A stretch of 64,000 nucleotides of DNA from Oligoflexia bacterium (GTDB lineage: Bacteria > Bdellovibrionota_G > JANQFH01), in contig JANQFH010000008.1 in NCBI GenBank assembly GCA_028277945.1, forward strand, positions 195,442 to 259,441, written 5' to 3'. Position 1 is the first letter of the stretch. Each line of letters begins with the position of its first letter. The translations under genes were made by a program, and so were the position numbers. Shown here piece by piece: positions 8,966 through 51,907 of this stretch. The notes beneath the pieces were generated by a model, which was given only the letters and a program-made list of their open reading frames with translations, did no database searches and had not been told where the DNA came from.

Positions 8966-9047
8966 ATGATGACAACTATGACACATTAGGGGATAGGATC
9001 AGAACAGCGATTGGAGATGAGAGTTGTCAGAAACTAGAGGAAATCAA

Positions 9048-9431: not shown

Positions 9432-9716
9432 TGGCACTGAGCAAAAGAGACAAAAACAAGATTAAAAGCGTCTAGCTACCTATCTACCTCGTACAACCAT
9501 ATTCTTGGCAATTTTGGTGGAGAATTTCTGGCTTGATCACACCAACTTCAAATTTACTTAATAATTTTAGATGGTTATTATTAAATCTGTTATTCCGGCA
9601 AAAATATCGGCATATTTCTCTTAAAAAATAACTTCCCAAATTTATAACCATTTGTTATAAAATGTTATATATGAAAAATTCATCGGTAATAATACCGGCA
9701 TTTTCGACTTAAATCC

Positions 9717-10907: not shown

Positions 10908-11045
10908 TAAGCGCTCTGTCACGATAACAAAAGGATAGACCACCCATAGTGTCCCCAGGGGCCGATTTGCAACTAGCCAGCGCATGCGATAGACTAGATC
11001 TAAGCTAAGACAACGAGATTTTTGAACATCTTCGCGGAGATACGC

Positions 11046-11987
11046 ATGCAACCAACCCCCCGTTTGTGGGTTTTGCCTCTCTTGATACTCTCTCTTCTAG
11101 CCAGTCCACTGATGGCCCAGGGGCCCGTAGAGGAGCTGGAGAAACAGCAAGAGGATACCCGTCTCTACCTTGAGACCATCGACATGCTCAAGGACAACTC
11201 CCTGGAAAATCAAATCAAAGGCTGGGAGAAGTTCCTCAAGGAGCATCCCGACAACTACTTTCGTGATGAGATCGAGGCCAACCTCGATAACATGAAGGCA
11301 CGCCAGGAGATCATTGCCAGAGAGCAGGAAGAGCAGGATTCTCGACGCTACTTTGCAACCGTGGAGCGGGCCGCAGACAAACCCGTAAGCGAGCAGATCC
11401 CTATCTGGGAGAAGTACCTCAAAGAGAACCCAGACTCACTCTTTGCCAACGAGGCACGCACCACCCTAAACCGCCTGCGTCTACAAGCAGGGCCTGCTGT
11501 GGCACCAGCCCAACAACCCCTGCCATCATCGCCACCCCCTCCAGCGCCCCTACCAACAGCTCCGCCAACCGTCGAGACCACCGCCAAAGATCTGACCCTG
11601 CAGGATGATGGGCTGCTCGATCCCAATCGCGCCCTCTTTCTCGCCTCCGTCCCAGGTCTCATTGTTCCAGGCCTTGGCCACTTTTATGCCGGCAACTATA
11701 CTATTGGCGGAGTCCTCGTCGGCCTACGCGTAGGTGGCTTAGCCCTCATGGGCTATGGTTTCTTTGATGAAAACCGCTTAGCGCTGATTATCCCCGGCAG
11801 CCTGGTGGCTGGCTTCTCCTACGTTCTCGATGTGGTCATGGCGCCCATCCAGGTACGCAACCGCAATCACAGCCTCGAGCCACTCCCACCCTTAGAGGGG
11901 AGCCAACTCAGACCTCTCGACCAAGATCACCCCTTCGCCAAGGCAGAGCAGGAGCTGCTCACCCTCACTGTGGGCTTCTCCTTTTAG
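11046..11987 (+). CDS. secreted/membrane hypothetical protein with proline-rich linker
   Basis: ATG at 11046 preceded by GGAG; signal peptide, helical repeat region, Pro-rich linker (PLPSSPPPPAPLPTAPP), glycine-rich hydrophobic C-terminal segment. Confidence 0.45.
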   Translation: MQPTPRLWVLPLLILSLLASPLMAQGPVEELEKQQEDTRLYLETIDMLKDNSLENQIKGWEKFLKEHPDNYFRDEIEANLDNMKARQEIIAREQEEQDSRRYFATVERAADKPVSEQIPIWEKYLKENPDSLFANEARTTLNRLRLQAGPAVAPAQQPLPSSPPPPAPLPTAPPTVETTAKDLTLQDDGLLDPNRALFLASVPGLIVPGLGHFYAGNYTIGGVLVGLRVGGLALMGYGFFDENRLALIIPGSLVAGFSYVLDVVMAPIQVRNRNHSLEPLPPLEGSQLRPLDQDHPFAKAEQELLTLTVGFSF

Positions 11988-12392
11988 GCTGGATAAAACG
12001 GGACTTTGATCTAGTCTGACCTAAGGTTTCTGGCCCCATACTTGGAAGAGCCACGGCACACTCATAAGAGTGCGGGTATCCTGAGACAAAGTCTTTAAGG
12101 TTGTAACGATTGCAAGGATACTTCTTCATCGTGATATTTGTCGAACTCAAGCAAAGCCCTGCCTTCGCCCTGTAATCAAAACAAGTTGGTCGTATAGTGA
12201 CCATTTTGTTTCCATAAAAGACAATCAGCATTCTATCCAACGTTAGGATCAAGACAAAGTTAATCACTCCACTCCCTTCGTGAAGGCTAACAACTGATTA
12301 CTCTTCGGCTAATAATGGTCTGGCTTTCTTGGCACACAATTTGCTTTTTTTTAAGCCAGCCACGTCACCTTCAATTTGTTATGGGAGGAACT

Positions 12393-12515
12393 ATGAAGGA
12401 CGCAAAAAAGACAAAACGTCAACAGTCTAAGTCGTCAAAAAAAATCTTTTCCCCTATTAAGGACAAGCTGTTAGATACAGCTATGTCGACTATCACATAT
12501 GATGTAACTGGCTAA
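12393..12515 (+). CDS. candidate precursor peptide (40 aa): MKDAKKTKRQQSKSSKKIFSPIKDKLLDTAMSTITYDVTG
   Basis: ATG preceded by GGGAGG at 4-nt spacing; lysine-rich N-terminal part and Ser/Thr-rich C-terminal part; 93 bp upstream of the HExxH and YcaO-like genes. Confidence 0.35.
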   Translation: MKDAKKTKRQQSKSSKKIFSPIKDKLLDTAMSTITYDVTG

Positions 12516-12608: not shown

Positions 12609-13601
12609 ATGTGTTTAGAATATCATTCCGCCCCAGGAAAATTATCACCTTTTGTGCTTCGAAAAAATTTTCAAGGATATTTGGTTAAAAGCGCTATTTC
12701 CTACATTAATGAAGTTCAGTCGTCTTTAAAATTGGACCTCAACCACATAATATTAAAGTTATCCAGCCTAGATCAAAACCAGAAATTTTCCCCCTCTATC
12801 TATACAGGGTATCACATACTACAGTCAGCTTACGATAGTCAGAATAAAACCCTTGTGTTGGATGCCCTTCATTTCTTGGTTCAGTATTGCAATGATAAAG
12901 GTGGTAACAATAACATTGATTATTCAACTATACTTACAGAACCATATGAGAATCATTGTATAGACACTTTTCGAAAATCGAACCCTAAAGATGACTTCGG
13001 CGTGCCAGCTTTTGACGTTGTAGAAATGTTTCCAATACTGAATGTTAAAAAATATAAAATTCCTCCGTCTAGCCTTAAAAAGGCTGAAGAAATATTATCG
13101 CTGATTGATATGGATTTATGGAAAGAGTATCAAGCTTACGTTTCTATCTTAAAGATCTTCCAAGGAAAGAGTCTTCAAGGTGGAACAAGTCTCAACTGTT
13201 TTGGTACGGTATACCTGAGAATGCCTGAGGATTCCGAACATCCGGTACTCTACTTCCTGGAACATATTGTGCATGAAACCTCCCATTTGCATCTCTATGC
13301 ATTAGCCGGAGACAGAGACCTTGTTAGAAACGATTCAGCCTCTGTTTATGACTCGCCAATACGACACGACAAACGGCCCATTATTGGGGTATTTCACGCT
13401 ACGTTTGTTTTGGCTCGCTTAGTCCGTATATTTCAGCGCTACCTAAATCATTTTAGCAATGACTATCCAGAAGGAACTACCTTCTACAACAGAATAAGCA
13501 GAGACTTCAAAACCGGATACTCTATATTGAAAGAAAATTGTCTTTTTACAACGCTTGGGCGACAAATTTTTGATTCGTTAGATGATTGTACGAAAATTTG
13601 A
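12609..13601 (+). CDS. HExxH-motif protein (putative metal-dependent peptide-modifying enzyme)
   Basis: 330-aa ORF with HETSHLH motif and downstream RPIIGVFHATF segment; paralog of 26946..27779 (AHELGHH ... RPLFGIYHAAF); 3' end overlaps the next gene by 20 nt. Confidence 0.55.
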   Translation: MCLEYHSAPGKLSPFVLRKNFQGYLVKSAISYINEVQSSLKLDLNHIILKLSSLDQNQKFSPSIYTGYHILQSAYDSQNKTLVLDALHFLVQYCNDKGGNNNIDYSTILTEPYENHCIDTFRKSNPKDDFGVPAFDVVEMFPILNVKKYKIPPSSLKKAEEILSLIDMDLWKEYQAYVSILKIFQGKSLQGGTSLNCFGTVYLRMPEDSEHPVLYFLEHIVHETSHLHLYALAGDRDLVRNDSASVYDSPIRHDKRPIIGVFHATFVLARLVRIFQRYLNHFSNDYPEGTTFYNRISRDFKTGYSILKENCLFTTLGRQIFDSLDDCTKI

Positions 13602-14607
13602 AAGGAACGACCCTCTTGGAAATACCGCGTTTGGCAAACTACCTATCAAAAAACTGGTACGTGCTGCAGTCTTCCCTGATCGCTTTTTTGTAGGCAAAGC
13701 AGGTATCAAGCTTGTCAATTGGCAAGGAAATAATCAGTACCTTTGTGGCTTCTCATGCAGCAGACAACCGGCTATTGCCGAAAATGTAGCTGTTTTCGAA
13801 CTCTGTGAACGCTTGACAGCAAAGTATGAATTTCAATCTTTTCTGGGCACGAATATGAATACTTTCAGAGCGTTTACCTGGCCCGATGGGAATCCAGCTA
13901 GAGTGACAAAATCTCAATTATTCCTTGGTCCAAATCCATTTTCCCAATTTGGACAAGAGGCAACTGGCCTAGGTTTTGGCCCTGATTATCATCAAGCATT
14001 AAATCACGCTATTCTTGAATTGTTGGAGAGGCACATCTGCGCAGGTCTTTGGTATGAAGCAAAATATAGGCTATGCAAGGCAATCGACAGAGTATCTTTA
14101 GACTCCTTTGACATTTTCTACTATACCCTCCACAGACCGAAGATACCATTTGTTCTAGCCATTATATACTCGAATGAACTTGAGGTGCTTTCAGTCGGCC
14201 ATGCAATAAGATCTACGTTTGAGGAGGCGAAGGAAAAATCCTACTCCGAAGCAGTGATGCTGTTAGATTGTGTTCTCCACAAGGATAACGGTATCTGTAC
14301 CAATTTAAGAACTAAAAATCGTTTGCTTTCTCAAAGAGGTCCCTTAGCAAAAGAACGATTCCAACAATTTAACGATCTGACAGTAAACGTGGCAGCAGCA
14401 AAAAATATCCTAAGCCGATATTTTTCAATATCTGAGATTACTGCGGCGGTGCTTGGCACTAATGACGATATCGAAATTATTCAACTTTTCCGGGATAGAA
14501 ACTTCTGGTCTCTACGAGCACTTTCGAAGAAGGTGGCTACCTTGGCAGAACGTCGACAATCGAATCGATATTCAGAAAAACAAAAGATTCTGGACCCTTA
14601 TTGCTAA
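13582..14607 (+). CDS. short YcaO-like domain protein
   Basis: 341-aa ORF with YcaO signature segments VAVFELCERLTA and TGLGFGPDYHQALNHAILELLERH; overlaps the upstream HExxH gene. Confidence 0.6.
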   Translation: MIVRKFERNDPLGNTAFGKLPIKKLVRAAVFPDRFFVGKAGIKLVNWQGNNQYLCGFSCSRQPAIAENVAVFELCERLTAKYEFQSFLGTNMNTFRAFTWPDGNPARVTKSQLFLGPNPFSQFGQEATGLGFGPDYHQALNHAILELLERHICAGLWYEAKYRLCKAIDRVSLDSFDIFYYTLHRPKIPFVLAIIYSNELEVLSVGHAIRSTFEEAKEKSYSEAVMLLDCVLHKDNGICTNLRTKNRLLSQRGPLAKERFQQFNDLTVNVAAAKNILSRYFSISEITAAVLGTNDDIEIIQLFRDRNFWSLRALSKKVATLAERRQSNRYSEKQKILDPYC

Positions 14608-18395: not shown

Positions 18396-19142
18396 CTACT
18401 CTCCAAAACCCTTCACAAAAAACTTCTCATCGATCAACCGCAGACCCTCATAGACCTCATACTTGATCAAGGCACCCTTGGTATCGCGGTAGAGCCCTTT
18501 GCGCACTTGTCTTGGTTTTTTGTAAAGGCCCTCAACCTTGCTCAAAAAGGCTGCCAGTTCCTCTCTACTAAAAGGGCCATGCCGTTCCCAATCGAGCCAA
18601 TCAGGGCCAATGGAGACCACCACCGATAGCTCACGGCTGCCAGGTTTTACTCCACCAAAGAGCTTCTTTGCCATCCTCTGACTGCCAAGCGTCAGGAGGT
18701 GCCAGTTGCGGCTTTCAAAATGCTCTCGCTTGTTCTGCTGATCCATAAACATAAAATAGACGCCTTCGCTCCAGGAGCTACGATCCAGATTGACGCCTTT
18801 TTTGAAGCGCTCTAAAAATGTTTTTAAATCGGCAGGTTGATCATGCCAATGCCGTATGATCCTTTTGATAAAAGACCAGGTTGAGATGACAGACATGCCC
18901 TCCTCATCTTGCGACTGATCCAGAGAGTCGAGTTTTTCTAATTCATAACCTCTAAACAGTTCCGAACCTGTATCAGGCTCTGTTACCAGCAGCAGAGCAC
19001 CATCTTTAAGTTCCACAGTATCTCCAAACTCTATAGGTCTTTCGATATCCTCAGGAACTCCAGGGATATCAATCACTGTATCTCCCTGCTGTGCAAAGGG
19101 AGAGTCTGGATGGGGGGGTCGTTTTTCTCTCTCACGCATCAC
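18396..19142 (-). CDS. hypothetical protein, possible immunity/partner protein for the upstream RES-domain protein
   Basis: 248-aa ORF whose start overlaps the stop of 19139..20923 by 4 nt; no signal peptide; acidic. Confidence 0.4.
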   Translation of the reverse strand: MMREREKRPPHPDSPFAQQGDTVIDIPGVPEDIERPIEFGDTVELKDGALLLVTEPDTGSELFRGYELEKLDSLDQSQDEEGMSVISTWSFIKRIIRHWHDQPADLKTFLERFKKGVNLDRSSWSEGVYFMFMDQQNKREHFESRNWHLLTLGSQRMAKKLFGGVKPGSRELSVVVSIGPDWLDWERHGPFSREELAAFLSKVEGLYKKPRQVRKGLYRDTKGALIKYEVYEGLRLIDEKFFVKGFGE

Positions 19143-20923
19143 TCTAGGGCCTCAAAAAGAACGACGTTAAAGCCATCTGGATTTCTTGCCGAGGGTACGA
19201 CAATACCACGATAGTGCAGCCGCGCCAATTCTCCTATTATTTGTGTTATTGAGTAATCCTCAGAGATCAAAGCTTCAGGAGCTATATTTAATAGCTCCCT
19301 GACACTTGGTTCATTAAGATCGAGCATGTTGTCGAGTGTGACATAGCGGCTTCTTGTTTCAATCACCCCCTTGACACCATGGGCTCGCATTTCCGCGGCG
19401 ATGGTCTGCCGATCGCCGCTCATGTAAAGCGCGCTTCTTCCCGGCGCTGAATAGCGATGGTTGGCGGCAATATTACCCTGCGGTATTTTCCACGAACCTG
19501 CTCGGTAAACATCACCTCTGTATTTACTTCCCTTGACAACACCTTGAACCAGCTTTTTGGTGGTATCAGGCCCCAAAGCTTGGCTCGCCCTTATCACCGC
19601 AGGCAGATGCTGCTGATCAAAGAGCTTTCTTGCCAAGCCACCACCACCGCGCCCTAGCAAACTGGTGGTCCCTCGGACCATGACCGTGCCTGACAGGACC
19701 ATAGGCACCATCATGGAGACAACTGTCTCTAAAGCCATCTCAAGCGGCAAGCTCGCCTCGACAACTCCAGTTGACGAATCCTCTTGTAGTGCCCACAAAT
19801 GGTAGTCTGCTGCCGCCATTTTGAGTGCTCCTGACAAGAACTCGCCGTCTCGGATATCTTGCACTCCCTCAATCATTAAATAGGCGGCATCTATAAGATG
19901 TGGCAGATCTGGCAGGGTTAAGGCATGATCGAGGGTAATCTCCACATGTTGCCAGATGTGTTGGGAGAGCCTCTCACCTAGATCGCGCTCTAACAGCGCC
20001 AACTCATCGAAGGTCTCAACACGGATGCGCGCCATGGAGCTGTCTGCTTCCAAATGGAGTCGACCTTTGGCCGTTGATTGAGCGCGTTCTGCTCGGTCAA
20101 TGAGTTCGTCTAATGTCTCCTGTATCCAGCGATGTCGTATGAGATCTCGCATGCTGCGAAGCTCGTGAACCCGCCGTGAGAATGCCGCGTAGCCATAGGC
20201 AACCACCTCCTTACTTGAAGCCCGTTCCACAGCCGCCAGGGCAACATCGGTGGAGGTGGCCGTGAGCCCCAGAAATAGTGGCAATCCATGTCTGTTTTCA
20301 GGAAGTGGCAACTGAGCTTGCTGTTGAAGTTGCACAAAAAGAGAGGAGTTGTGGATCATGTCACTAGCGGAACTGTGAGAAGCGAGATCGGAACCACCCC
20401 TTTCGTGGAGGGTGCGAATGTCGAGGCCGCTTGCAGATGATTCATCTCGAAGCTGATCATCTTGAGCTTGCTCTGCAGAGAGGCTTAGATGTTTGTTACT
20501 CTCTGCAACTGCAGTGTTGGCTTGAAGTAGGCTGAGGCCACGTTGCAACCCTGTAAGGTACTGAACTCTACGCCGAGCTTCCACATCACTGTGAGTCGGT
20601 GCTGAGCCTTCTTCATCCTCATCATCAAATCCACCGATCTCTCCTCTCGGGCTATCAAAGAAAGGGTCAAATCCTTCATCTTCTGTTTTGTCTTTGGGTT
20701 TTTGAGAGGAAACGATAACAATAGGCGTGTCAAAAACAATATGGACGTTGCCATCGGAGTCAACGGTCACATTTCCTGGCTCTGTGGTGTAGTCGTGCTC
20801 TCTTTCCTGAGCTGATTCAGTTTGTCCTGCATCATCTTGTGCAACAAGCTCTCTCTGCAACGGCGAAAAAAGACAAATCGTCGCGATCAATAAATAAAGC
20901 AGGCTTTTACATGAAATTTTCAT
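19139..20923 (-). CDS. secreted protein with C-terminal RES-domain (NAD-targeting toxin-like) module
   Basis: 594-aa ORF; signal peptide; C-terminal region with RES-domain signatures YRAGSW ... RYSAPGRSALYMSGDRQTIAAE ... VVPSARNPDGFNVVLFE. Confidence 0.6.
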   Translation of the reverse strand: MKISCKSLLYLLIATICLFSPLQRELVAQDDAGQTESAQEREHDYTTEPGNVTVDSDGNVHIVFDTPIVIVSSQKPKDKTEDEGFDPFFDSPRGEIGGFDDEDEEGSAPTHSDVEARRRVQYLTGLQRGLSLLQANTAVAESNKHLSLSAEQAQDDQLRDESSASGLDIRTLHERGGSDLASHSSASDMIHNSSLFVQLQQQAQLPLPENRHGLPLFLGLTATSTDVALAAVERASSKEVVAYGYAAFSRRVHELRSMRDLIRHRWIQETLDELIDRAERAQSTAKGRLHLEADSSMARIRVETFDELALLERDLGERLSQHIWQHVEITLDHALTLPDLPHLIDAAYLMIEGVQDIRDGEFLSGALKMAAADYHLWALQEDSSTGVVEASLPLEMALETVVSMMVPMVLSGTVMVRGTTSLLGRGGGGLARKLFDQQHLPAVIRASQALGPDTTKKLVQGVVKGSKYRGDVYRAGSWKIPQGNIAANHRYSAPGRSALYMSGDRQTIAAEMRAHGVKGVIETRSRYVTLDNMLDLNEPSVRELLNIAPEALISEDYSITQIIGELARLHYRGIVVPSARNPDGFNVVLFEALE

Positions 20924-26945: not shown

Positions 26946-27779
26946 TTACACTTCTATTCTCTCTCTGACACCTAGCATAAACAACTTAATGTCCTTATCG
27001 AATTCCAGAAGACCAGATTTTGTAATAGTAGTAAGATCCTTTATATACTTGTTCTTATAACAATCTAAAATACGACTGGAACTCTGCTTGATTAACTCTT
27101 CTATCGAGTGATTCGAATGTATCCGCAAACCAAGTTCCAGCATGGCCGCCTCAGCAAAGGCTGCATGATAGATACCGAACAGTGGCCTTTTCATGTTTCT
27201 CAAAGCTGATCGGTCTTCTTTTGCCCATGGATAGCGATTCACTGTGGCTTCACTTTTTGTTGCAAAGACAATAGTAAGGTAGTGATGGCCCAACTCGTGA
27301 GCTAGAATTTCTGCCCACTTCACAGGGTCATCACTATTCATTACATATTCAATAAGTCCAAAGACTTGGGGATCAGAGGCTGATTCGTGTTCAACACCTT
27401 GCCTGGGAAAACACATTCTTGGTTTGATAATTTGCTCAAATGCAAATAGTTTCTTCCATACTACTCCGATAATTGTTCTTGCTGCAGAGTATAGTGCTTC
27501 TTTTTCTGGATAGCGTTGCAGTGAAGAATCAAAAATAATGTTACTGCCAACTACGAACTTGCTACGTGCGATATCACGAGTTATTAGATTGCTAACTTGG
27601 TCAGTTGACAGACTAAACTTATCACGATTGAAATAGATCCAAGAGAGAGTTGATAAGCTCAATTCTCTATTAATGTCTATATTGCGGAATGCTGGTATGA
27701 GCTTAAGAGCTTGCATTCCCTGCTGTCTAAATTGACTAACGTATTTTTTTGTCAGATCAATTGAGAATATAGAAGGCAT
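26946..27779 (-). CDS. HExxH-motif protein (paralog of 12609..13601)
   Basis: 277-aa ORF with AHELGHH and RPLFGIYHAAF segments; first long gene after the candidate precursor ORF. Confidence 0.55.
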   Translation of the reverse strand: MPSIFSIDLTKKYVSQFRQQGMQALKLIPAFRNIDINRELSLSTLSWIYFNRDKFSLSTDQVSNLITRDIARSKFVVGSNIIFDSSLQRYPEKEALYSAARTIIGVVWKKLFAFEQIIKPRMCFPRQGVEHESASDPQVFGLIEYVMNSDDPVKWAEILAHELGHHYLTIVFATKSEATVNRYPWAKEDRSALRNMKRPLFGIYHAAFAEAAMLELGLRIHSNHSIEELIKQSSSRILDCYKNKYIKDLTTITKSGLLEFDKDIKLFMLGVRERIEV

Positions 27780-27817: not shown

Positions 27818-27922
27818 CTACGACCCGGTAGGTATGCTAGCTAACTTAGCACCTAGCACACGGTGTGATTGAAAAGAGAAATTGAAGGAAACTGTCTTTT
27901 TACTTTCGTTGCTTTTTGCCAT
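27818..27922 (-). CDS. candidate precursor peptide (34 aa): MAKSNESKKTVSFNFSFQSHRVLGAKLASIPTGS
   Basis: Below the ORF-track size cutoff; ATG preceded by AGGAG at 7-nt spacing; stop lies 38 bp upstream of the HExxH gene start. Confidence 0.35.
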   Translation of the reverse strand: MAKSNESKKTVSFNFSFQSHRVLGAKLASIPTGS

Positions 27923-34453: not shown

Positions 34454-35638
34454 ATGAATAAAGAAAAGACGATTAAGAGCTCTCTTTTCAATGGATTTTC
34501 TCTCCAGGCCTTTATCTCCTCCACTCCAAGCATTGTGACGGTTGCGATTATTCCATTTATCGTTAAACACCTCGGTTTAGCATATATATGGATCGGAGTT
34601 ATTTTTTTTCTATTACGAGTGGGTCTAATAAGCGGTCGGTTTATCGGTCCGTTCTTTCTAAAATGGCTAAAACCACATTACCTCTGTGCTATTTTTGAGC
34701 TAAAGAATTTTTTCTTGATTACCATTATCTGGTTTTATTTCGACAGGATACCTTCTTCCCTCTTTGCTATTCTTTGGCTGCTAAAAGGAATCATCATTGG
34801 AGCCATATCAACCCTGGTATTTTCTTGGCTGCGTCATCTATCCGACGTCAGTAAGACCAAGCGAACGTTAATTACGGTTATGGCTATTATACAGTCTAGC
34901 TATGGTGTAGCAGGAGTTATCATTCTTACTACAACTCCTGATATAAATCTTATCAAGAATATCTTGTTAATTGATGCGCTGTCATCCTGTGTAGGACTAG
35001 TTACATTTTTGAATCTTAGGCGTTTTCGGGCTAAGGACACAGGTCGTGGAAACGCATTCTCCATATTTAAATTTCCATTTCTCAATAGAGAACGCGTCAT
35101 TCTTCTTATTGTGGATATTTTGGTAGCGGCAGGTCTTGGCGGTGCAAATATTCTACTAGTGAAGTATGGTGAAATGTACTTTTCTACCATAGGCGGATAT
35201 GGCACGACGCTTGTCGTATATGCGATAGCTTTTCTAATCGTTGGCTTTCTATTTAATATAGAACAGTCAGATACAGATCTCATTATTCGTAGACTGACGA
35301 TGCTTTGCGTGCCTCTAATGTGGGCAGGGTTGGTTGTTTTGGCTATCGCATCAGATAAGTCTTTGTTAGGTATTGCTGGATTTTCACTAGTCTATTTAAA
35401 CTTACCTATTTTCTTTTTAAGAATACAGGCGAAATGGTTCACGTTAAGTACCCCTGAAGAAGCGGCTAAGATATTCGCTTACAGAAGTTTACTTGTAGAT
35501 GTTGTTAGTGCTGTCGGTGAAGTGGTCTACGGTAGTATTAAAGAAGATATTCTGATAAGAATTACTCTCTTAACTCTTGCTATTATTCTTGGAATTGCTT
35601 TCCGAAATATGATCTTTCCTCACACACAACAATCATGA
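34454..35638 (+). CDS. polytopic membrane transporter (MFS-like)
   Basis: 394-aa ORF with about 12 hydrophobic segments; convergent with the histidine kinase at 35658..37493. Confidence 0.5.
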   Translation: MNKEKTIKSSLFNGFSLQAFISSTPSIVTVAIIPFIVKHLGLAYIWIGVIFFLLRVGLISGRFIGPFFLKWLKPHYLCAIFELKNFFLITIIWFYFDRIPSSLFAILWLLKGIIIGAISTLVFSWLRHLSDVSKTKRTLITVMAIIQSSYGVAGVIILTTTPDINLIKNILLIDALSSCVGLVTFLNLRRFRAKDTGRGNAFSIFKFPFLNRERVILLIVDILVAAGLGGANILLVKYGEMYFSTIGGYGTTLVVYAIAFLIVGFLFNIEQSDTDLIIRRLTMLCVPLMWAGLVVLAIASDKSLLGIAGFSLVYLNLPIFFLRIQAKWFTLSTPEEAAKIFAYRSLLVDVVSAVGEVVYGSIKEDILIRITLLTLAIILGIAFRNMIFPHTQQS

Positions 35639-39038: not shown

Positions 39039-40130
39039 TCACTGCGTACTCCGGTCACAGTAGATCTCAATATCATTCTGTTTTATCAGTATATGTTTTT
39101 GTGTATACGTTACTTCTACGCCTTTATGGTGTGCTTTGTAATCATATCTATAATGACCATCGAAATATCGGCATATTTGTAACGGCCCTGATTTTTTTAG
39201 TAGGTCTGTCACCCCCAATTGTAGAGGATTTTTATTTCCCGAACGTGATGACGAGGCCATCTCCTGAAACGGATGCAATTTTGAATCAATTCGCTTAGGT
39301 ACATTAGGATGAGCGTAATAAAATATTTCTCTGTCACCGCACTTCCTAAAGTAATAGGGAATGTCACCTCGTTCTAATTGTTCTAGCTCACTAGGTAGAA
39401 ATTCGTTCCCGTTTAAATTATTCGCCTTCTTTGTCAAGAAGGAATGATAATCTCTTGTAGACCGAGGAATGACCCGAATCGGATTTTGCATGAATCCATC
39501 AATGGAAGCAAAAAGATTCGCTGTGAGTTCTGTTACTGATGAGAGAAAGTTCAATGCGTCAAAAAAACCAAAGCAAATTGCAGCAACGCCACTGTGGGAT
39601 CTATCCAACTCTCGAAAGTTATTTAATAGGTGGGAGAGTCCTGAATCTTCAAATGTCAATGCAGGGGAAGGTATGAGTGCTGTTTCAGAGAGAAGTGTGT
39701 GATCTTCAAAGATACATTCTATATCGATAGGGCTGAATATGATACTGCCAGCAGAAGTCTTGCCAAGCAATACATTGGCACGGTGCAGATCTCCAATTCC
39801 GAACCAAGTAATAAGTGCGATGGTACGGCCAATATCTTCTAATACTTCTAAATCTAGATCTTTGGAAATGAGAGGTTTAAGTAGGAGTTCCTCTACTCTG
39901 CCAAAACATTTTTCACCAGGAGATGACATTTCGACATATAGTTTTGGTAAAGATCTTCCTGGGTATACAAATCCCCTTTTCTTAGCTTCAGATTCTAATA
40001 AAGATGTTAAGGGACTTAATCGAGATAAGAAGAGGTATTCCCAAAATACAGTTCTAGGCTTGCAAATCCTTTGGGTACCATCACGACAAACTCGCTGTCC
40101 AAAATTGTGAGGGTCGCCTAACGGTTGCAT
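39039..40130 (-). CDS. hypothetical protein, possible kinase-like phosphotransferase fold
   Basis: 363-aa ORF with GGGAGG before the ATG; segment GIGDLHRANVLL resembles catalytic loops of aminoglycoside/protein-kinase-like phosphotransferases; occupies the modifying-enzyme slot of the cassette. Confidence 0.35.
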   Translation of the reverse strand: MQPLGDPHNFGQRVCRDGTQRICKPRTVFWEYLFLSRLSPLTSLLESEAKKRGFVYPGRSLPKLYVEMSSPGEKCFGRVEELLLKPLISKDLDLEVLEDIGRTIALITWFGIGDLHRANVLLGKTSAGSIIFSPIDIECIFEDHTLLSETALIPSPALTFEDSGLSHLLNNFRELDRSHSGVAAICFGFFDALNFLSSVTELTANLFASIDGFMQNPIRVIPRSTRDYHSFLTKKANNLNGNEFLPSELEQLERGDIPYYFRKCGDREIFYYAHPNVPKRIDSKLHPFQEMASSSRSGNKNPLQLGVTDLLKKSGPLQICRYFDGHYRYDYKAHHKGVEVTYTQKHILIKQNDIEIYCDRSTQ

Positions 40131-40144
40131 ATGCCTCCCATCAG

Positions 40145-40258
40145 TCTATGCGGGTAGAGAAAGGGGAGGCTTACCTAGATCCCTACAGTCACGCCACGTA
40201 TTACGACAATCTTCTCCAATTTATCTAAATCTATGTATTCTCGTCTTCTTTTTTTCAT
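40145..40258 (-). CDS. candidate precursor peptide (37 aa): MKKRRREYIDLDKLEKIVVNTWRDCRDLGKPPLSLPA
   Basis: Below the ORF-track cutoff; ATG preceded by AGGAG at 6-nt spacing; stop lies 14 bp upstream of the 39039..40130 gene. Confidence 0.35.
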
Positions 40259-40895
40259 GATTTACTCCTATTTAGGTTATATCCACCAATTTTTCAAGCT
40301 CTTATTTGATATCCTTAAAGCTTAGGATGCACCCTATCCTAATTTATTTCTGCAAGGAACGTGCTAACAAAAAAGTTAATGATTTTAAAAGATTGGGTTC
40401 TTCAGGAAAGAGTATTGTTGGTTTTTGCAACAATCTAGTGCATAAAACGACAAATTGTATCTCTTACGACCAAGGTTAATAAAAGTTAATAGTGATTGAA
40501 GGGGAGGATTAGTTGTGGAGTGTTAACCCTTGGATGATATTAGACGAATTTTGAAAATCGGTCTTAATCTATTGATAAAAAAGAAACTTTTTGGGAAATT
40601 GGGGTTGATTGCCGACTGACCCAACAAAATACTACAGAAGTCTTAATGTGACAGACGTAACACATGATTCATTTCAGATGCTTATGTTGTAGTGCAGAGT
40701 GTATAGAATTTTCTCAACAAGAAGGCATATATCCTGGGAAAGGCTGCTGGTTATGGGATGTGGCCTTGCCTACTGGTATGGCGACTTACAACACTTACTC
40801 TTTTGTTAATTTCCGTAGGACTAAGAGTGGTTGCGAGGCTGGTGTACAGCATTCTCCCTATTTCAGTGGAGGGCTTGTTTTCAGAGTTTAAACAC

Positions 40896-41000
40896 CTAGT
40901 TCGCTATGAGGCTTTCCATAAACTGGTAGCCTTCGGCAATTGCAGCATCGGTAATTTGGTCCTTCAAACTGTCAACACTTCTCCGTCCCCAAGCACATGA
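40896..41000 (-). pseudogene. 3'-terminal remnant of a paralog of the lipase-like gene 44960..46414
   Basis: Minus-strand translation ...SVDSLKDQITDAAIAEGYQFMESLIAN-stop matches the C-terminus ...GLKDQITDAAITEGRQFMESLIVN-stop of 44960..46414, with a nucleotide match of about 70 bp; no upstream body. Confidence 0.5.
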
Positions 41001-41116
41001 AGTGTGTTGAACTTGAAATAGGTCTGCTACCTAAGCGAATGCTTTCCTACATTCCTATTGAAGTAGTTGGGCATAAATTACGTTAGTGGTTTTAACAAAT
41101 ACTAGTTAAGGTCTTG

Positions 41117-42331
41117 ATGTTTAGATTCTATTTCAACTCTTTTCGAGGTTTACCCAGGGCGGGAGTGTTGCTTTCATTGGCTGCATTGATAAACCGTCTT
41201 GGAAGTGTGGTGTTGTTTTTCTTTGCGATCTATTTAACGAAAAATAATTGGAGCGTATTTGATATTGGGAAGGTTCTATCAGCCTATAGTTTTGGCTATG
41301 CAGGTGGGGCTTATCTTGGTGGTCGTCTTAGTGATCGTTATGATAGCCGTTTTATACTTATAATTACACTAATGGGTTCTGGCTTATGTTTCTTCGGACT
41401 TTCTATAGCGGATTCTTTTACACCTGTTATTCTTTTACTTTCTATGGCTGGCATTTTGGAAGGTGCCTTTAAACCAGCATACAATGTTACAATGACCCGA
41501 TGTTGTACCCAGGACGAGTGGTCACGTGCTTATGCACTGTATATGACCACGACTTATTTAGGAGGAGCTATAGCTTCAATGGCAGGTGGATTTTTGTCCA
41601 AATGGAACTTTAGCTACATTTTTTATTTTGATGGTGTAACGTGTATCATTGCAGCGGTTTTTGTGTGTATTGTTTTCGATCGGCTAACCCGTTCAGTGGA
41701 AGCAGAGAAAGAGCAAATCACCGATGAGTTCAGTCTATCTAAAAATACACCTCCATCTTCTCTAGTTATTTGGATAATTTTTGTATCCATGTTTTTTGTC
41801 TATCTTGTTGATCAACAGGAGTCTGGAAGCTATATGATTCATATTACAAAACAGTATGGTATTGATACTCACCAGGTAGGTATGTTGATTGCTTTTGGCT
41901 GTGTACTTATGGCACTGACCACTGTACCTTTGACTCAGTTTTTCAAACGCATTCCGGATTTTATCGCGATGACTTTAGGATCTTTGATTCTTTGCCTGTC
42001 CTTTGGTCTTTTGAATCAGGGTGATAGTTTTGCCTTTCTTTTCTTGTTGATGGCTATGTGGTCCTTGGGCAGCATCATATCATTTCCGACCGTAGTGAGC
42101 CTCATTGGTAAGTACTCAACAAAGGAAAGGGTTGGACATAACATGGGAATTTACCATTTCATCTCTGGCTTAAGCAGAATCGTCGCGCCCTCTCTTGGTA
42201 CCTATGTCTATCAAAACTTGGGTCCGAATATCTTGTGGAGTGCTTGCACTGCTATTGGTGTTTTCAGTGGTGTATCCTTCCTTCTCATTTATCGTTTTAG
42301 TTTAAGGTCAATTCACTCCAGAGAAGCATGA
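41117..42331 (+). CDS. MFS-type transporter
   Basis: About 404-aa polytopic membrane protein, motif-A-like loop GGRLSDRYDSR; ATG at 41117 (track start is TTG at 41114). Confidence 0.7.
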   Translation: MFRFYFNSFRGLPRAGVLLSLAALINRLGSVVLFFFAIYLTKNNWSVFDIGKVLSAYSFGYAGGAYLGGRLSDRYDSRFILIITLMGSGLCFFGLSIADSFTPVILLLSMAGILEGAFKPAYNVTMTRCCTQDEWSRAYALYMTTTYLGGAIASMAGGFLSKWNFSYIFYFDGVTCIIAAVFVCIVFDRLTRSVEAEKEQITDEFSLSKNTPPSSLVIWIIFVSMFFVYLVDQQESGSYMIHITKQYGIDTHQVGMLIAFGCVLMALTTVPLTQFFKRIPDFIAMTLGSLILCLSFGLLNQGDSFAFLFLLMAMWSLGSIISFPTVVSLIGKYSTKERVGHNMGIYHFISGLSRIVAPSLGTYVYQNLGPNILWSACTAIGVFSGVSFLLIYRFSLRSIHSREA

Positions 42332-43131
42332 AACTGATCGAAAGAGATGTAGCTTTAATCAACCATGAATATTACATCGATGGAATTGCTGGCAGTCAGT
42401 ATACATCGAGACAGGTGTTTACGTGCCGAGGTAAACTATTTGTTGTGATTGATGAATTGTGTGTCGATAAGTTACATGATATAGCGGTTAACTACGTTGG
42501 CCAATATAGTACTAAGAGTATAGTGTGTCTTTGCTCACATTTACGTGTTAGACAAATTAGTGAAATGTGGGAAAAGACAAGTTCAAAATTCTATTCGTGG
42601 TTTGGTTTTACGTTTGATCCGGCATTGTCCCGGTTCGACTTTGCTTACTCGAAAAGTGCACTAGAGGGATTCGACGTATCGGTCGGTATGCCAATTAGTA
42701 AGGTTGAAAAGGAAACACTGTTAAAATTGTGGCAAAAACACTATATTGAAAAGGTTCTCCTAGGTTATCCGGAGAAAATAAGGCATCGTTATCTTGAAGA
42801 ATTTCAACAAAGATTGGGTTCTGATAATGAAAATCGGCATACCATAGTTCGGCAGGATAGTGAGATTGTGGCCCATCAGATGCTACGAAGACTTTTTACG
42901 GAGCAAAGAAACTGTTGGGATAAAGAGTTGCACTTTTGGGTCGATGGACAGCTGAATAAGTCGATTCGACGAGAAATTCATCGACGGTTTTGGTATGAAG
43001 TACATGAGGCATCGAGAAAACATATGGTGCTTGGTGGTGTTGCGAGTAATAATATATCGAGTATCAAACATCTCATTAAAAATGGTGGCCGATTACTTTT
43101 TATTCAATACATAGGGTTATCGTCTTACTAG
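42328..43131 (+). CDS. hypothetical protein (cassette enzyme slot)
   Basis: 267-aa ORF whose start overlaps the MFS stop by 4 nt; no recognised motif. Confidence 0.4.
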   Translation: MKLIERDVALINHEYYIDGIAGSQYTSRQVFTCRGKLFVVIDELCVDKLHDIAVNYVGQYSTKSIVCLCSHLRVRQISEMWEKTSSKFYSWFGFTFDPALSRFDFAYSKSALEGFDVSVGMPISKVEKETLLKLWQKHYIEKVLLGYPEKIRHRYLEEFQQRLGSDNENRHTIVRQDSEIVAHQMLRRLFTEQRNCWDKELHFWVDGQLNKSIRREIHRRFWYEVHEASRKHMVLGGVASNNISSIKHLIKNGGRLLFIQYIGLSSY

Positions 43132-43253: not shown

Positions 43254-43343
43254 TAACCTTGACGGATTTAAGCGATCAGGGTAAGCATTTATAATTAGAC
43301 GAGATTATAAATGAGCTTAGAAAGGGAAGCGCAATGCGGAGTT
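43254..43343. repeat. duplicated promoter/5'-leader element, copy 1 (pairs with 47260..47352)
   Basis: AACCTTGACGGATTTAA ... ATTATAAAT.AGCTT.GAAAGG.AA..GCAATGCGGAGTT shared with 47260..47352, including a TTGACG -35-like box, a purine-rich RBS and the ATG CGG AGT start. Confidence 0.6.
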
Positions 43344-44740
43344 CAAAAATTGGTATGACAAACGTTCCAAGTGACCTTGATCCATTGAAGGCACGATATG
43401 CTTACGACCTGATGATGAACGCATGCGTTTTTTCGCGACTTGTACAGCTTGATGGTAATGGTCAGGTGGTGTCAGAGCTTGCGTCCAGTTGGAAGGTTAG
43501 TGATGCAGGAGATGAGTATACCTTTACCTTGAATTCGGACGCGAGATTTCATGATGGGTCACCAGTAACAGCTCGAGATGTTGTCTATACCTTCGAAAGG
43601 ATCTTGAAGTCAGATCGGCCACCTGCTTCGATTCTTCGTCTAGCATTAGATCCTTCCTTTCGTTCGGATGAGGATTGTCCGGTAAAGGCAGTGAACGATC
43701 GTCAGGTCAAATTTCATTTACCTGGTGCGTACCCGCCATTTCTGTCTCTGCTTTGTAATCCTGTTTTTGGAATAGTTGCTCAGGATAGTGATGGTAAGAT
43801 TGGCTCTGGTCCAATGGTGCTGGAGGCTGACGAGCATAGTAAGACATTGAAGTTTAAACCCTTCCAGGAAGGCGCCGGTCTCGGCGAGTTTTATGTAAAG
43901 CAGATCTCCCGTGACAGCTTACCGGAAGTTATTGCCGAAGATGAACTAGATCTGATTTTTGGGCTCAATTCAATAGATTTTCAGAACGTAATCCGCATAG
44001 ACCCATACAAGGTCGTCAGAGGCCATGATTCGTTTGTCGCTCACTTTTTATGCAATACCAAAAGTCCAGTACTAGATTCTTTAGAGAGGCGACGTAATCT
44101 AAGCTATTTGATCAATTCGCTTTCAGATGAAGTGAGCAATTTAGCAGAATATCAAAAACCGCTGAAAAGTTTTCTACCAAGTGGGTTGTTGTCGCCATCT
44201 TATTACCAGAGAGCAACATCGCCTGTATCCGAGGATGCCTTTAGTGCAAAAAACAGCCAATTCAAAGCCCAACCGCTGCGTATCGTGGTTCAGAAAGGTA
44301 TTTTTTCTCAGAGTTATATGAGTGCGCTAGGTTCTCTAATAGAAAGGCTAGGTATGGTACCTGATATTCAACTAGTGGATTCAGACGCATTATGGAACCG
44401 CTATGCAAAGGATGATTATGATCTTATATCTTTTAGTTACAGTTTGGCGATTCCCGACGATCCAGATGGCTACCTATGGCCCTTCGACAATAAGGAGCTC
44501 GGCATTGATAATCGGTTTCCTATGAGCTCTTTTCTTCAGAAGATTGAAAAGGTCCGTTTTACGTCGAACCAGAAAGAGAGACTCGAGCTCTATGAACGTG
44601 AGTTCAAGCAGTTTGAACAGGAACATTACTTTATTCCAGTGCTTCAACATGACCATCTTATTGCTTTTAAAAACCGGAGCGAAATACCGACTTTAAAGCC
44701 TACATTCCTTTATCGATTGTCTGATTTTATCAGACCTTAG
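43334..44740 (+). CDS. family-5 solute-binding protein lacking a signal peptide (N-terminally truncated paralog)
   Basis: 468-aa ORF aligning to the other SBP5 paralogs from about residue 40 onward (SKIGMTNVPSDLDPLK vs LKIGVSILPQTLDPMK); begins MRSSKIG with no hydrophobic leader. Confidence 0.65.
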   Translation: MRSSKIGMTNVPSDLDPLKARYAYDLMMNACVFSRLVQLDGNGQVVSELASSWKVSDAGDEYTFTLNSDARFHDGSPVTARDVVYTFERILKSDRPPASILRLALDPSFRSDEDCPVKAVNDRQVKFHLPGAYPPFLSLLCNPVFGIVAQDSDGKIGSGPMVLEADEHSKTLKFKPFQEGAGLGEFYVKQISRDSLPEVIAEDELDLIFGLNSIDFQNVIRIDPYKVVRGHDSFVAHFLCNTKSPVLDSLERRRNLSYLINSLSDEVSNLAEYQKPLKSFLPSGLLSPSYYQRATSPVSEDAFSAKNSQFKAQPLRIVVQKGIFSQSYMSALGSLIERLGMVPDIQLVDSDALWNRYAKDDYDLISFSYSLAIPDDPDGYLWPFDNKELGIDNRFPMSSFLQKIEKVRFTSNQKERLELYEREFKQFEQEHYFIPVLQHDHLIAFKNRSEIPTLKPTFLYRLSDFIRP

Positions 44741-44959
44741 CCTAGATCCGGACACAGACATATTTTTTAACGAATTTATTATGGTTCATTTCGTGTAATA
44801 GTGTGTTCGATCCGAGTGTGTACCCTAGGCTTTTTCAAGAATGAGTTTGGTTTTGAGCCGAAAGGGCTCTAGCAGTATATCCAGGGTACCCCGTTTCAGG
44901 CGGCGACGTCCTTTAAGAAAGGCGGAGATGTTTGCTGGCGTTGCATGGGCAAGTAAAGC

Positions 44960-46414
44960 CTAATTCACTATTAGGCTCTCCATAAACTGGCGGCCTTCGG
45001 TAATTGCCGCATCGGTAATTTGATCCTTTAAACCTGTGGCATTCTTTGCCCAACACTCAGGGCTTTTTGAGAATAGGAATCGCTGCTGGTTGGCCTTGAA
45101 CCCATATTGGTGTCCGCCACCTCTGCCGCGCTGGGCGTGACCGTTGTAAGAGGTACAATAAGACATCTCTGCCCATTCTAAATCCTCTCGTCTCGCTTTC
45201 AAAACCAATGCCGGACAATCATCAAACCATTTCAACACGGCATCTGCCTGTTCACTACATTTAAGCAAAAGACCAGAGATAACATCCATAAAAGCCATTC
45301 CTGCCATACACTGACCTACACTCAACTTTTGCGGCCTATGAATATGCCGATGCATCCAATGCCAAACAGGCATTAAAGAAGAGTGTAATCCATTTACCAG
45401 TTCATGCATATAGGCTCGTTCGTATTGTACTACCGGATCTTCAGAATTGATTGATCCGATCAAAAATTCTTCTTTAATCTTTATCTTCATCTCTCCATTG
45501 TTTTCAAAAACCCATTTTTCAAACATCTCGTCTATAGCCGAACGGATCATCAGCATTACAAAATCCCATGCTGAACCACTAAGATAATGCCTTACAAAAT
45601 CGTGCCCCGTACCTGTCGCCTCCTCATCACTCCAGTTTGGCGGTAGTTTTTTTGGCACTGCTCTGATAATTCGATCTTGCTTCAGCGTAATATGCAATGG
45701 CTTGATATAAGGGGTGTCTCCAGGACCTTTTGCTCTAGATAAATCACCCAACTTAGTTCGCTCAAACCGAGTATCAGACACCTTACTTGCTGGCGTTGCC
45801 ACTGAAATCAGCATCATGATACCTTTAAAGCCTCCGTTATCACCCTCGAACATCACCTTTTCATAAGCCTCATTTGAAAAGAAATTCCCTTGTGAGTGAC
45901 TGACTGTTAATGTATTGTAACCTTCCTCCAGTGATTTTCGATAAGCCGCTACTTGTTCAGCAATGTCAGCTCTTCTTTGTCTGTTCACAAATTCGTCAAA
46001 TAACCCCCTAATCGACTTAGAGATGTTCACCAAAAAATCCGGCGCTAGGTGCTGCTGGGAGAACAGACGAAACATGCTCCCTGAATCTAAGACAACGTTT
46101 TTTCTACGCAGATCGTCCCGCTTTTGATCCATTGCCTCGGCAATCTGCAGCAAAACTGTTTGATCGGTGTTGAACGCGATGTTCGGCTCAGCGTCTCGTA
46201 CTAGCCCTTCCACACCTCTCAAAACACGCATTTTCTCCCAAAGCTGAGTCCAAGATTTTTGTGCCTCCTCAAAAGAGGTAAACATTCCATTTGCGAAATA
46301 TAATCTCGATTTCCTCCAACACTCACCTGCACCATAACCTACCTCAGCCACAGTCAGCAGAACGACAAGGATCCCTAGAGCAATGTTCAAATTTCTACTT
46401 GTGTTCAAATTCAC
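44960..46414 (-). CDS. secreted hypothetical protein, possible alpha/beta-hydrolase (lipase-like)
   Basis: 484-aa ORF with signal peptide; SxSxG-type nucleophile-elbow candidate (TVSHSQGNFF); its C-terminus is duplicated as a remnant at 40896..41000. Confidence 0.35.
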   Translation of the reverse strand: MNLNTSRNLNIALGILVVLLTVAEVGYGAGECWRKSRLYFANGMFTSFEEAQKSWTQLWEKMRVLRGVEGLVRDAEPNIAFNTDQTVLLQIAEAMDQKRDDLRRKNVVLDSGSMFRLFSQQHLAPDFLVNISKSIRGLFDEFVNRQRRADIAEQVAAYRKSLEEGYNTLTVSHSQGNFFSNEAYEKVMFEGDNGGFKGIMMLISVATPASKVSDTRFERTKLGDLSRAKGPGDTPYIKPLHITLKQDRIIRAVPKKLPPNWSDEEATGTGHDFVRHYLSGSAWDFVMLMIRSAIDEMFEKWVFENNGEMKIKIKEEFLIGSINSEDPVVQYERAYMHELVNGLHSSLMPVWHWMHRHIHRPQKLSVGQCMAGMAFMDVISGLLLKCSEQADAVLKWFDDCPALVLKARREDLEWAEMSYCTSYNGHAQRGRGGGHQYGFKANQQRFLFSKSPECWAKNATGLKDQITDAAITEGRQFMESLIVN

Positions 46415-50426: not shown

Positions 50427-50654
50427 AAACAGGCAGCAGCACAGATTGGTCATTTAGTGAAAAAGACCCGTAAAAGTCTAGGTGTCACCCAGAAGGAGTT
50501 GGCGCTGACCTCGGGTACAGGTCTGCGCTTCATCATTGAGCTGGAGAAGGGCAAACCGACCTGTCAACTAGCCAAGGTGCTGACGGTTCTACATACGCTG
50601 GGCATCAAGCTTGAGCTAACGGCGCCAGCCACTGCAAGAGATGACGGCAAATGA
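50424..50654 (+). CDS. hipB: HipB-like XRE-family HTH antitoxin
   Basis: 76-aa ORF with HTH segment LGVTQKELALTSGTGLRFIIELEKGK; overlaps the hipA start by 4 nt. Confidence 0.7.
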   Translation: MKQAAAQIGHLVKKTRKSLGVTQKELALTSGTGLRFIIELEKGKPTCQLAKVLTVLHTLGIKLELTAPATARDDGK

Positions 50655-51907
50655 GCAAGACTCTTGATGTTTATTTGTACCGCCACCTGGTTGGCTGCCT
50701 CATACAGGATGAGCATGGTCTGATGGTATTTGATTATGCAGAGAACTGGCTAGAGAATCCCAACGCAATTCCTCTATCGTGTTCGCTACCGCTAAGAAAA
50801 GAGCGCTTCTCGTTTAAGGAATGCCGAGGATTTTTTACCGGCGTCCTACCAGAAGAAAGTAAACGAGAGGTGATTGCGCGCATTTTTGGAATTAGTGCAC
50901 GCAATGACTTTGCCATGCTTGAGCAAATTGGCGGTGAGTGCGCTGGAGCAGTTACTTTCATTCCCACTGGTCAATTGTTGCCGGAGCGTGACGAGCACTA
51001 CCGTGAGGTTTCCAACCAAGAGTTGGCGGAAGTTCTTCGAACACTACCAACTCGGCCCCTTTTGGCGGGAGAAGAGGGCGTCCGTCTATCGCTAGCAGGT
51101 GCACAGGACAAAATTGCTGTTCGTATGGATGGCGATAGAATCTCCATTCCGCTTGGAGACTCTCCCAGCACACACATCCTGAAGCCCGACATCGAGCGTT
51201 TCCAAGGGGTGGTTTTCAACGAGGCGCTCTGTATGCAATTGGCGGCCTCTATCGGCCTACCAACGGCGAATGTACAAACCCGCAGCGTTGAAGGCATCGA
51301 TTATCTTTTGATTGAACGCTATGACCGAGTGGTTCATATGACGTCCGATGGTCAGGCAAAGCTTCAACGTCTGCATCAGGAGGATTTTTGTCAGGCACTC
51401 GGTATTCCATCCGAGATGAAGTACCAGAGCGAGGGAGGGCCATCTCTCAAACAGTGCTTTAGCTTACTGCGAGAAGTTTCCAGCGCACCGGTGATCGACC
51501 TACAGCATCTTCTAGATGCCGTTATTTTTAATCTGCTGATTGGCAATCACGATGCGCATGCAAAGAACTTTTCATTTTTGTATGGAGATGGGACATCAGT
51601 AGAGCGGGGGACAAGACTTGCACCTCTGTATGATCTGATCAGCACCGTCTATTACCCAGAACTATCCAAGAAGATGGCCATGAAAATTGGTGGTGAGTAT
51701 GCTGCAGACAAAATCTTCCCAAGACATTTTGAGAGACTTGCCGAAGAGGCTGCCTTAGCCAAGCCGATGGTCAAGAAACGTATACCGGAGGTAGCTGAAT
51801 CCCTGATACACAGTCTAAGCAGCTTAACTACTGAAGAGTCGGTAGCAAAGGGTGTCACTCAAACTATACAAAAGCAGGCTGAATTGGTTCTGGAACGATT
51901 CAGATAA
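50651..51907 (+). CDS. hipA: HipA-family serine/threonine kinase toxin
   Basis: 418-aa ORF; HipA N-terminal region and catalytic motif FNLLIGNHDAHAKNFSF, plus LAGAQDKIAV. Confidence 0.85.
   Translation: MSKTLDVYLYRHLVGCLIQDEHGLMVFDYAENWLENPNAIPLSCSLPLRKERFSFKECRGFFTGVLPEESKREVIARIFGISARNDFAMLEQIGGECAGAVTFIPTGQLLPERDEHYREVSNQELAEVLRTLPTRPLLAGEEGVRLSLAGAQDKIAVRMDGDRISIPLGDSPSTHILKPDIERFQGVVFNEALCMQLAASIGLPTANVQTRSVEGIDYLLIERYDRVVHMTSDGQAKLQRLHQEDFCQALGIPSEMKYQSEGGPSLKQCFSLLREVSSAPVIDLQHLLDAVIFNLLIGNHDAHAKNFSFLYGDGTSVERGTRLAPLYDLISTVYYPELSKKMAMKIGGEYAADKIFPRHFERLAEEAALAKPMVKKRIPEVAESLIHSLSSLTTEESVAKGVTQTIQKQAELVLERFR

Follow-up and report, generated by a model that had tools for sequence, protein, structure and literature searches.

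In the LanM enzyme CylM, mutagenesis has assigned K274, D347, H349, N352 and D364 to phosphorylation of the peptide and D252, H254, R506 and T512 to elimination of the phosphate, since alanine mutants of the latter accumulate phosphorylated peptide (PMC4550811). Several excised LanM dehydratase domains dehydrate on their own (PMC10676384). CcaM (LanMbC; dehydrazoles, carnazolamide) is a DUF4135 enzyme whose product keeps dehydro-amino acids without lanthionine rings (PMC10676384, Nat Commun 2023). It is about 1015 aa long and inactive without its zinc-free class III cyclase domain; it does not depend on a leader, and the cores it acts on have to contain azoles (PMC10676384). The survey in that work left out DUF4135 proteins under 500 aa (PMC10676384), and because of this lower limit the short family considered here fell outside it. 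We analysed a stretch of 64,000 nt from an Oligoflexia bacterium (GenBank assembly GCA_028277945.1, contig JANQFH010000008.1, positions 195,442 to 259,441 of the forward strand; hereafter the window), in which a minus-strand open reading frame (ORF) encodes a protein of 363 aa. Judged from its sequence and its predicted structure, this protein is a minimal stand-alone homologue of the LanM N-terminal dehydratase domain, with a PI3K/PIKK-like kinase fold. We consider it probable that it works as a minimal LanM-type dehydratase on Thr24 of a 27-aa peptide encoded just upstream, and that the ring-free product is sensed by the binding protein and the histidine kinase encoded downstream. Homology, fold, residue conservation, synteny and the peptide pattern were computed; from them we infer substrate, chemistry, export and sensing. 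All that we say of the function of the enzyme is thus prediction.

The ORF cannot be extended upstream. The protein had been described as unknown in an earlier note made from the DNA letters, a description that no longer applies: Pfam DUF4135 (PF13575) recognises it with 39.7 bits (gathering score 29), residues 182-260 being aligned to profile positions 274-375 of 378, and most of its homologues carry a precomputed PF13575 match. A search of the PDB with the single sequence gave no match. The family profile found one protein there, LicM2, with the blocks GDxHxxG..KPR, DxHxEN, IDxE and E..L..DIPYF aligned. The AlphaFold2 model is confident (pLDDT 88.8, pTM 0.91), and Foldseek places CylM (5DZT, E 7e-7) and LicM2 (6ST5) at the top, followed by PI3K/mTOR-type and protein kinases. 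The earlier note had taken the protein for a kinase-like enzyme of phosphorylation-dependent peptide modification, proposed profile and structure-based homology searches as the check, and named a fold unlike that of a kinase as the refuting outcome. Both kinds of search lead to LanM proteins, LicM2 by profile and CylM and LicM2 by structure, and the fold predicted is that of LanM and, behind it, of PI3K and protein kinases. The kinase-like idea is therefore supported and can be refined to a LanM-type kinase/lyase, on the strength of the fold and of the nine CylM residues discussed below.

A word-indexed search of 5.8 billion proteins returned 24 homologues, all of 334-388 aa except two (207 and 295 aa). 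The family profile, run against 1.84 billion cluster representatives, gave 387 matches with E below 1e-30, so that with clustering at 50% identity the family numbers about 390 clusters. Among the 150 profile matches listed, all but about 12 have a length of 320-407 aa; those that are shorter match the profile over a part of it. To judge by these lengths, the short form is a genuine, sizeable family and no fragment of a larger enzyme. As it has neither the cyclase nor the N-terminal region nor Cys-containing substrates, we set it outside LanM proper. Proteins annotated as DUF4135 domain-containing on Rhizobium and Rahnella plasmids were considered as further examples of the short form and rejected, as they are split or full-length LanM-like genes (434+573 and 903 aa).

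Evidence on the chemistry comes from the catalytic residues. CylM, taken from the plasmid of E. faecalis ATCC 29212 with a numbering that agrees with the eLife 2015 paper, was aligned to the family profile. The alignment pairs D6 of the 363-aa protein with D252, H8 with H254, K24 with K274, D114 with D347, H116 with H349, N119 with N352, D136 with D364, R219 with R506 and T225 with T512, and the spacing from R to T is 6 residues in both proteins. Counted over 145 full-length family representatives, all nine positions are 95-100% conserved, taking D6 as D/E and T225 as T/S. The kinase-like DLHRAN loop from which the earlier note started lies within residues 111-122 (GIGDLHRANVLL). Both the ORF and the loop are real: the loop is the most conserved block of the family and has the DxHxxN catalytic loop as its counterpart in the CylM alignment, and across 23 homologues G111, D114, L115 and N119 are invariant and H116 nearly so. 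Back-translated, GIGDLHRAN occurs once in the window, at its own position on the minus strand, and in 0 of 100 shuffles.

As far as the sequence tells, the residues for both half-reactions, phosphorylation and elimination, are thus retained, and this favours complete dehydration over phosphorylation alone. If the enzyme were a peptide kinase only, a stable peptide with phosphothreonine at Thr24 would be the final product, for example as the ligand of the binding protein; this is what the idea of the earlier note amounts to when taken literally. All kinase residues are indeed present, and the protein is much smaller than the LanM domain, with about 45 residues from the catalytic loop to the R/T motif as against about 106 in CylM, so that elimination could be impaired. 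However, the four elimination residues are near-invariant (R in 145/145, T or S in 144/145, H in all 139 ungapped representatives), which argues for selection on elimination. We regard a kinase that stops at the phosphopeptide as unlikely, and prefer the dehydratase.

The presumed substrate of this dehydratase is encoded by a small ORF that ends 44 nt before the start of the enzyme gene. The earlier note had placed a peptide at 40145..40258; these bounds do not hold, as a stop codon lies at 40175..40177 and the true ORF is the 27-aa one entered in the table. A small ORF ending 3-110 nt before the enzyme gene is found in nearly every Bdellovibrionota-type locus, and 18 independent upstream peptides have in common a leader with [LIV]E at its end, mostly xIDL(D/K)x(L/I)E. 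Thr stands at +9 from the leader Glu in 13 of them (binomial P about 7e-8, for a core Thr frequency of 0.15), and one of the positions +8 and +9 holds Ser or Thr in at least 17, with Cys in a single core out of the 18. In the peptide of the window, E15 serves as anchor and T24, the sole hydroxyl residue, as predicted site. A fixed distance between motif and residue is the pattern that would be expected from a leader-guided enzyme modifying one position. The stricter pattern xIDLDxLE has a single match in the six-frame translation of the window, the MKKRRREYIDLDKLEKIVVIRGVTVGI peptide, so the other cassettes of the window are expected to use different precursors. In Fluviispira multicolorata the precursor (locus L059, 9773..9991) contains six tandem copies of the leader motif, MDLDKLEC five times and then MDLDKLEIKSFKFFGTVL; such a repeated leader ahead of a single core is unusual.

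We propose the following mechanism. The enzyme would recognise the xIDLDxLE leader of the 27-aa peptide and, in an ATP-dependent step using K24, D114, H116, N119 and D136, phosphorylate Thr24, nine residues past the leader LE. The phosphate would then be eliminated through D6, H8, R219 and T225, leaving dehydrobutyrine. With neither a LanC cyclase at hand nor a Cys in the peptide, a lanthionine ring is not expected, and the product would be a linear dehydro-peptide; the scan for LanC-like cyclases gave no match in the 363-aa protein or in any window ORF of at least 230 aa that was scanned. Once exported, the peptide would be bound in the periplasm by the SBP_bac_5 protein, which is co-translated with the enzyme in this model and would signal through the adjacent histidine kinase. 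The cassette would in this way be a self-contained module of peptide signal and receptor.

The layout of the genes (listed in the table) is compact. The stop of the enzyme gene and the start of the SBP_bac_5 gene overlap by 4 nt, and the latter overlaps the histidine kinase gene by 50 nt. The C-terminal extension of the kinase aligns with the receiver part of the hybrid-kinase model NCBIfam NF041832 (residues 252-599), with a score far below the cutoff of that model. A scan of 39900..41200 for promoters and terminators found none. The spacer between peptide and enzyme genes (40131..40174, minus strand) can form a hairpin, GCCUCCC/GGGAGGC, of -18.9 kcal/mol that covers the Shine-Dalgarno sequence of the enzyme gene; attenuation was considered on this account and rejected, the z score against shuffled sequences being -0.76.

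Table. Features of the cassette and of related genes, in window coordinates; residue counts refer to the 145 family representatives
Feature	Position	Strand	Remarks
Precursor peptide gene, 27 aa, MKKRRREYIDLDKLEKIVVIRGVTVGI	40175..40258	-	AGGAG 8 nt upstream of ATG
Leader YIDLDKLE (residues 8-15) and core KIVVIRGVTVGI	within 40175..40258	-	predicted site Thr24; no Cys, no Ser
Predicted stand-alone minimal LanM-type dehydratase (kinase/lyase) domain	39039..40130	-	363 aa; GGGAGG Shine-Dalgarno 4 nt before ATG
P-loop LGDPHNF, residues 4-10	40101..40121	-	D6: D 130, E 8 of 145; H8: 139/145, rest gaps
Lys24 of KPR motif	40059..40061	-	K 142/145, rest gaps; = CylM Lys274, gamma-phosphate-activating lysine
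Catalytic loop GIGDLHRAN, residues 111-119	39774..39800	-	D114 145/145, H116 138/145, N119 145/145
D136-I-E138, PIDIE motif	39717..39725	-	D 144/145, E 145/145; D136 = CylM D364, metal ligand
R219-V-I-P-R-S-T225	39456..39476	-	R 145/145; T 139 + S 5 of 145; CylM KA-domain elimination residues
SBP_bac_5 (OppA/DppA/NikA-type) binding protein, 519 aa	37483..39042	-	Pfam 109 bits; signal-peptide-like N-terminus
Membrane histidine kinase, HisKA + HATPase_c, 624 aa	35658..37532	-	Pfam
Hydrophobic 394-aa protein	34454..35638	+	no Pfam/NCBIfam match; homologues beside the enzyme, binding protein and kinase genes in L002, L059
YcaO homologues in paralogous binding protein/kinase cassettes	5737..6675, 13582..14607
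aKG-HExxH peptide beta-hydroxylase homologues (TIGR04267)	12609..13601, 26946..27779	+, -	66 and 44 bits vs cutoff 40

The same arrangement recurs in relatives. One genome per species was scanned, which gave 134 relatives, and the gene context was read in the best 80 of these 134. The enzyme, SBP_bac_5 and histidine kinase genes stand in this order and on the same strand in 11 of the best 80 loci, all of them Bdellovibrionota by their record titles; the holders are Bdellovibrionales, Bacteriovoracaceae, Pseudobdellovibrionaceae, Oligoflexia and Fluviispira multicolorata. Eight metagenomic contigs that carry further homologues were read as well, seven with SBP_bac_5 and kinase genes beside the enzyme and one (L089) that stops just past it. 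The order peptide, enzyme, SBP_bac_5, kinase, or a close variant of it, is seen in about 18 Bdellovibrionota-type loci, and in nearly all loci of this type with enough flank an SBP_bac_5 gene adjoins the enzyme gene. Locus L082 has a gene of the major facilitator superfamily (MFS) immediately 5' of the peptide. In locus L083 a fusion of MFS_1 and SBP_bac_5 (865 aa, 9045..11642) lies between the enzyme and kinase genes; it joins a presumed exporter to a presumed receptor and so links export with binding. The hydrophobic 394-aa protein of the window is a possible exporter for the cassette, a role that an MFS gene or an MFS fusion fills in L082 and L083.

Such a cassette could also make an antimicrobial or predation-related peptide of the class made on ribosomes and modified after translation (RiPP). 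The binding protein and kinase would then autoregulate the locus, like NisK and SpaK, or give immunity or uptake, and the role would change with the enzymology staying the same. Many lanthipeptide clusters, such as those of nisin and subtilin, are autoinduced via a histidine kinase; the relatives belong to lineages of predators, Bdellovibrionota and Myxococcota, and MFS exporters are found nearby. However, a core of only about 12 residues, of which one can be modified and none is a Cys for ring formation, is unlike the known antimicrobial lanthipeptides, and family scans of the cassette found neither ABC genes nor immunity genes. Moreover, several parallel cassettes in one genome, each with its own receptor pair, look more like multiple signalling channels. 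We therefore hold an antimicrobial role to be quite improbable, and keep to the peptide signal.

Several observations weigh against a dehydratase that makes a peptide signal. The direct match to Pfam DUF4135 is limited to the C-terminal quarter of the model, and the LanM model TIGR03897 failed, with 27.4 bits for a cutoff of 304 and residues 240-273 only. The approximately 245 residues that precede the P-loop in CylM are absent (profile position 4 corresponds to CylM residue 249), and the P-loop begins within about 10-25 residues of the N-terminus in nearly all homologues. We take this N-terminal region of LanM to include capping helices implicated in leader binding. With the region absent, leader recognition would have to differ from that of LanM. 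In the peptides themselves, Thr is off the exact +9 position in 5 of the 18, and the choice of anchor is ambiguous for two. A leader peptidase is missing from the cassette, as is an ABC exporter. Finally, among the best 80 loci there are 69, nearly all from Myxococcota and mainly Polyangiaceae, that have no adjacent binding protein or histidine kinase gene, and upstream of the enzyme gene in these 69 loci neither an ORF with the leader motif nor a conserved small ORF was found.

The signal role cannot, then, be extended to the whole family, and we confine the signalling model to the Bdellovibrionota-type branch, since the Myxococcota branch is without the peptide, binding protein and kinase context. 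The sole conserved neighbour in Myxococcota is a downstream protein of about 224 aa with a CxxC...DGTWSKAK motif, present in about 66 loci (for example L041, 11223..11894), which we take to resemble a DTW domain. The substrate of the Myxococcota branch may be different. That the window enzyme too acts on something else (a lipid, a small molecule, the binding protein or the kinase), the upstream ORF being an unrelated signal peptide or no gene at all, would suit this branch, the missing N-terminal region and the fact that, beyond LanMs, the nearest folds are lipid and protein kinases, but it is highly unlikely, as it is LanM in particular that the protein resembles, down to the LanM-specific R-x5-T and E..L..DIPYF blocks, as the small ORF with its conserved leader and fixed-distance Ser/Thr accompanies the enzyme in nearly every Bdellovibrionota-type locus and its leader pattern is absent upstream of the 69 mostly Myxococcota genes and, in stricter form, unique in the window, and as the same slot in paralogous cassettes holds known peptide-tailoring families.

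This last point rests on the other cassettes of the window. The term "enzyme slot" used in the earlier note is borne out by them, as they pair paralogous SBP_bac_5 and histidine kinase genes with YcaO or aKG-HExxH homologues. Three histidine kinases of the window share 34-37% identity among themselves and four SBP_bac_5 proteins 26-42%, and MFS transporters accompany the YcaO and aKG-HExxH cassettes. The gene studied here fills the slot that is held elsewhere in the window by recognised peptide-tailoring families. Just upstream of the two aKG-HExxH genes lie candidate precursors, MKDAKKTKRQQSKSSKKIFSPIKDKLLDTAMSTITYDVTG within 12315..12515 and MAKSNESKKTVSFNFSFQSHRVLGAKLASIPTGS at 27818..27922 (minus strand).

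A further module, on the plus strand, has no kinase and consists of an MFS gene (41114..42331), a gene for a 267-aa protein (42328..43131) and an SBP_bac_5 gene (43334..44740). The 267-aa ORF overlaps the MFS gene by 4 nt and has no Pfam or NCBIfam match; given its place in the enzyme slot, it may encode an unrecognised peptide-tailoring enzyme. The module is flanked by a direct repeat of 75 nt (40895..40969 and 44959..45033) whose copies are 87% identical and lie 4064 nt apart. What remains in the left copy is a piece of the 3' end of gene 44960..46414, and its 23-aa ORF MKDQITDAAIAEGYQFMESLIAN resembles ...LKDQITDAAITEGRQFMESLIVN. The repeat, together with this 3'-end remnant, suggests insertion or recombination of the three-gene module at the end of gene 44960..46414. 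Toxin-like genes are found amid the peptide cassettes as well: a Fic-domain protein (9717..10907), a protein of 594 aa that has a RES domain at its C-terminus (19139..20923) and a HipA-family kinase (50651..51907).

Considering these cassettes together, it is tempting to propose, although we hold it somewhat less likely to be right than wrong, that Bdellovibrionota use modular peptide "languages", each made of a short precursor, an interchangeable YcaO, aKG-HExxH or minimal LanM-type enzyme, an exporter and a dedicated pair of periplasmic binding protein and kinase that reads the modified peptide. The minimal enzyme, with 340-390 aa across its family, would then be the smallest natural ATP-dependent peptide dehydratase; it would read its leader with no N-terminal region of the LanM kind and modify one Thr placed at a fixed distance from that leader. 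That exchangeable tailoring enzymes are tied to paralogous receptor pairs suggests that modified ribosomal peptides serve as signals in predatory Gram-negative bacteria. If true, this would be RiPP-based cell-cell signalling in Gram-negative bacteria, of which we found no description in the literature. The family of about 360 residues would represent the phosphorylation-elimination core of LanM without N-terminal region or cyclase. It would offer a compact tool for introducing dehydro-amino acids into peptides, as well as a natural experiment on leader recognition and elimination in LanM. Our literature search found no paper on a natural stand-alone DUF4135 protein of about 360 aa or on cassettes of peptide, enzyme, binding protein and kinase, which is not proof that none exists.

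Compared with known systems, the enzyme is closest to LanM. CylM (5DZT) and LicM2 (6ST5) give the best fold match, LicM2 is the sole relative in the PDB at the level of sequence, the nine catalytic residues of CylM recur at matching spacing, and in the window cassette a short precursor gene lies directly upstream. The differences are considerable: 363 aa here against 993 in CylM (with a dehydratase part of about 640), a segment between catalytic loop and R/T motif that has about 60 residues fewer, no LanC either as a fusion or as a neighbour, substrates almost without Cys, and an operon with a binding protein and a histidine kinase instead of a LanT-type ABC transporter/protease. CcaM resembles the enzyme as predicted here in that dehydro-residues are left without rings, and also in the company of YcaO enzymes, with which it co-occurs in its biosynthetic setting, as the window too has YcaO cassettes. 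The PI3K, PI4K and PIKK enzymes (mTOR, Vps34, PI4KIIIbeta) are 9-14% identical to the protein; they have neither the LanM-specific R-x5-T and DIPYF blocks nor residues for elimination, and their substrates and biology are unrelated. On the sensing side, LuxQ and TorS are established sensor kinases that depend on a binding protein, LuxP and TorT respectively. The cassette resembles these systems in that the gene of a binding protein overlaps that of a membrane histidine kinase, maybe of hybrid type, with no ABC permease genes in the cassette, and by this analogy we infer sensing from binding protein to kinase. It differs from them in that the binding protein is of family 5 (oligopeptide/nickel) and that its presumed ligand is a ribosomal peptide, modified by the enzyme and encoded in the same operon.

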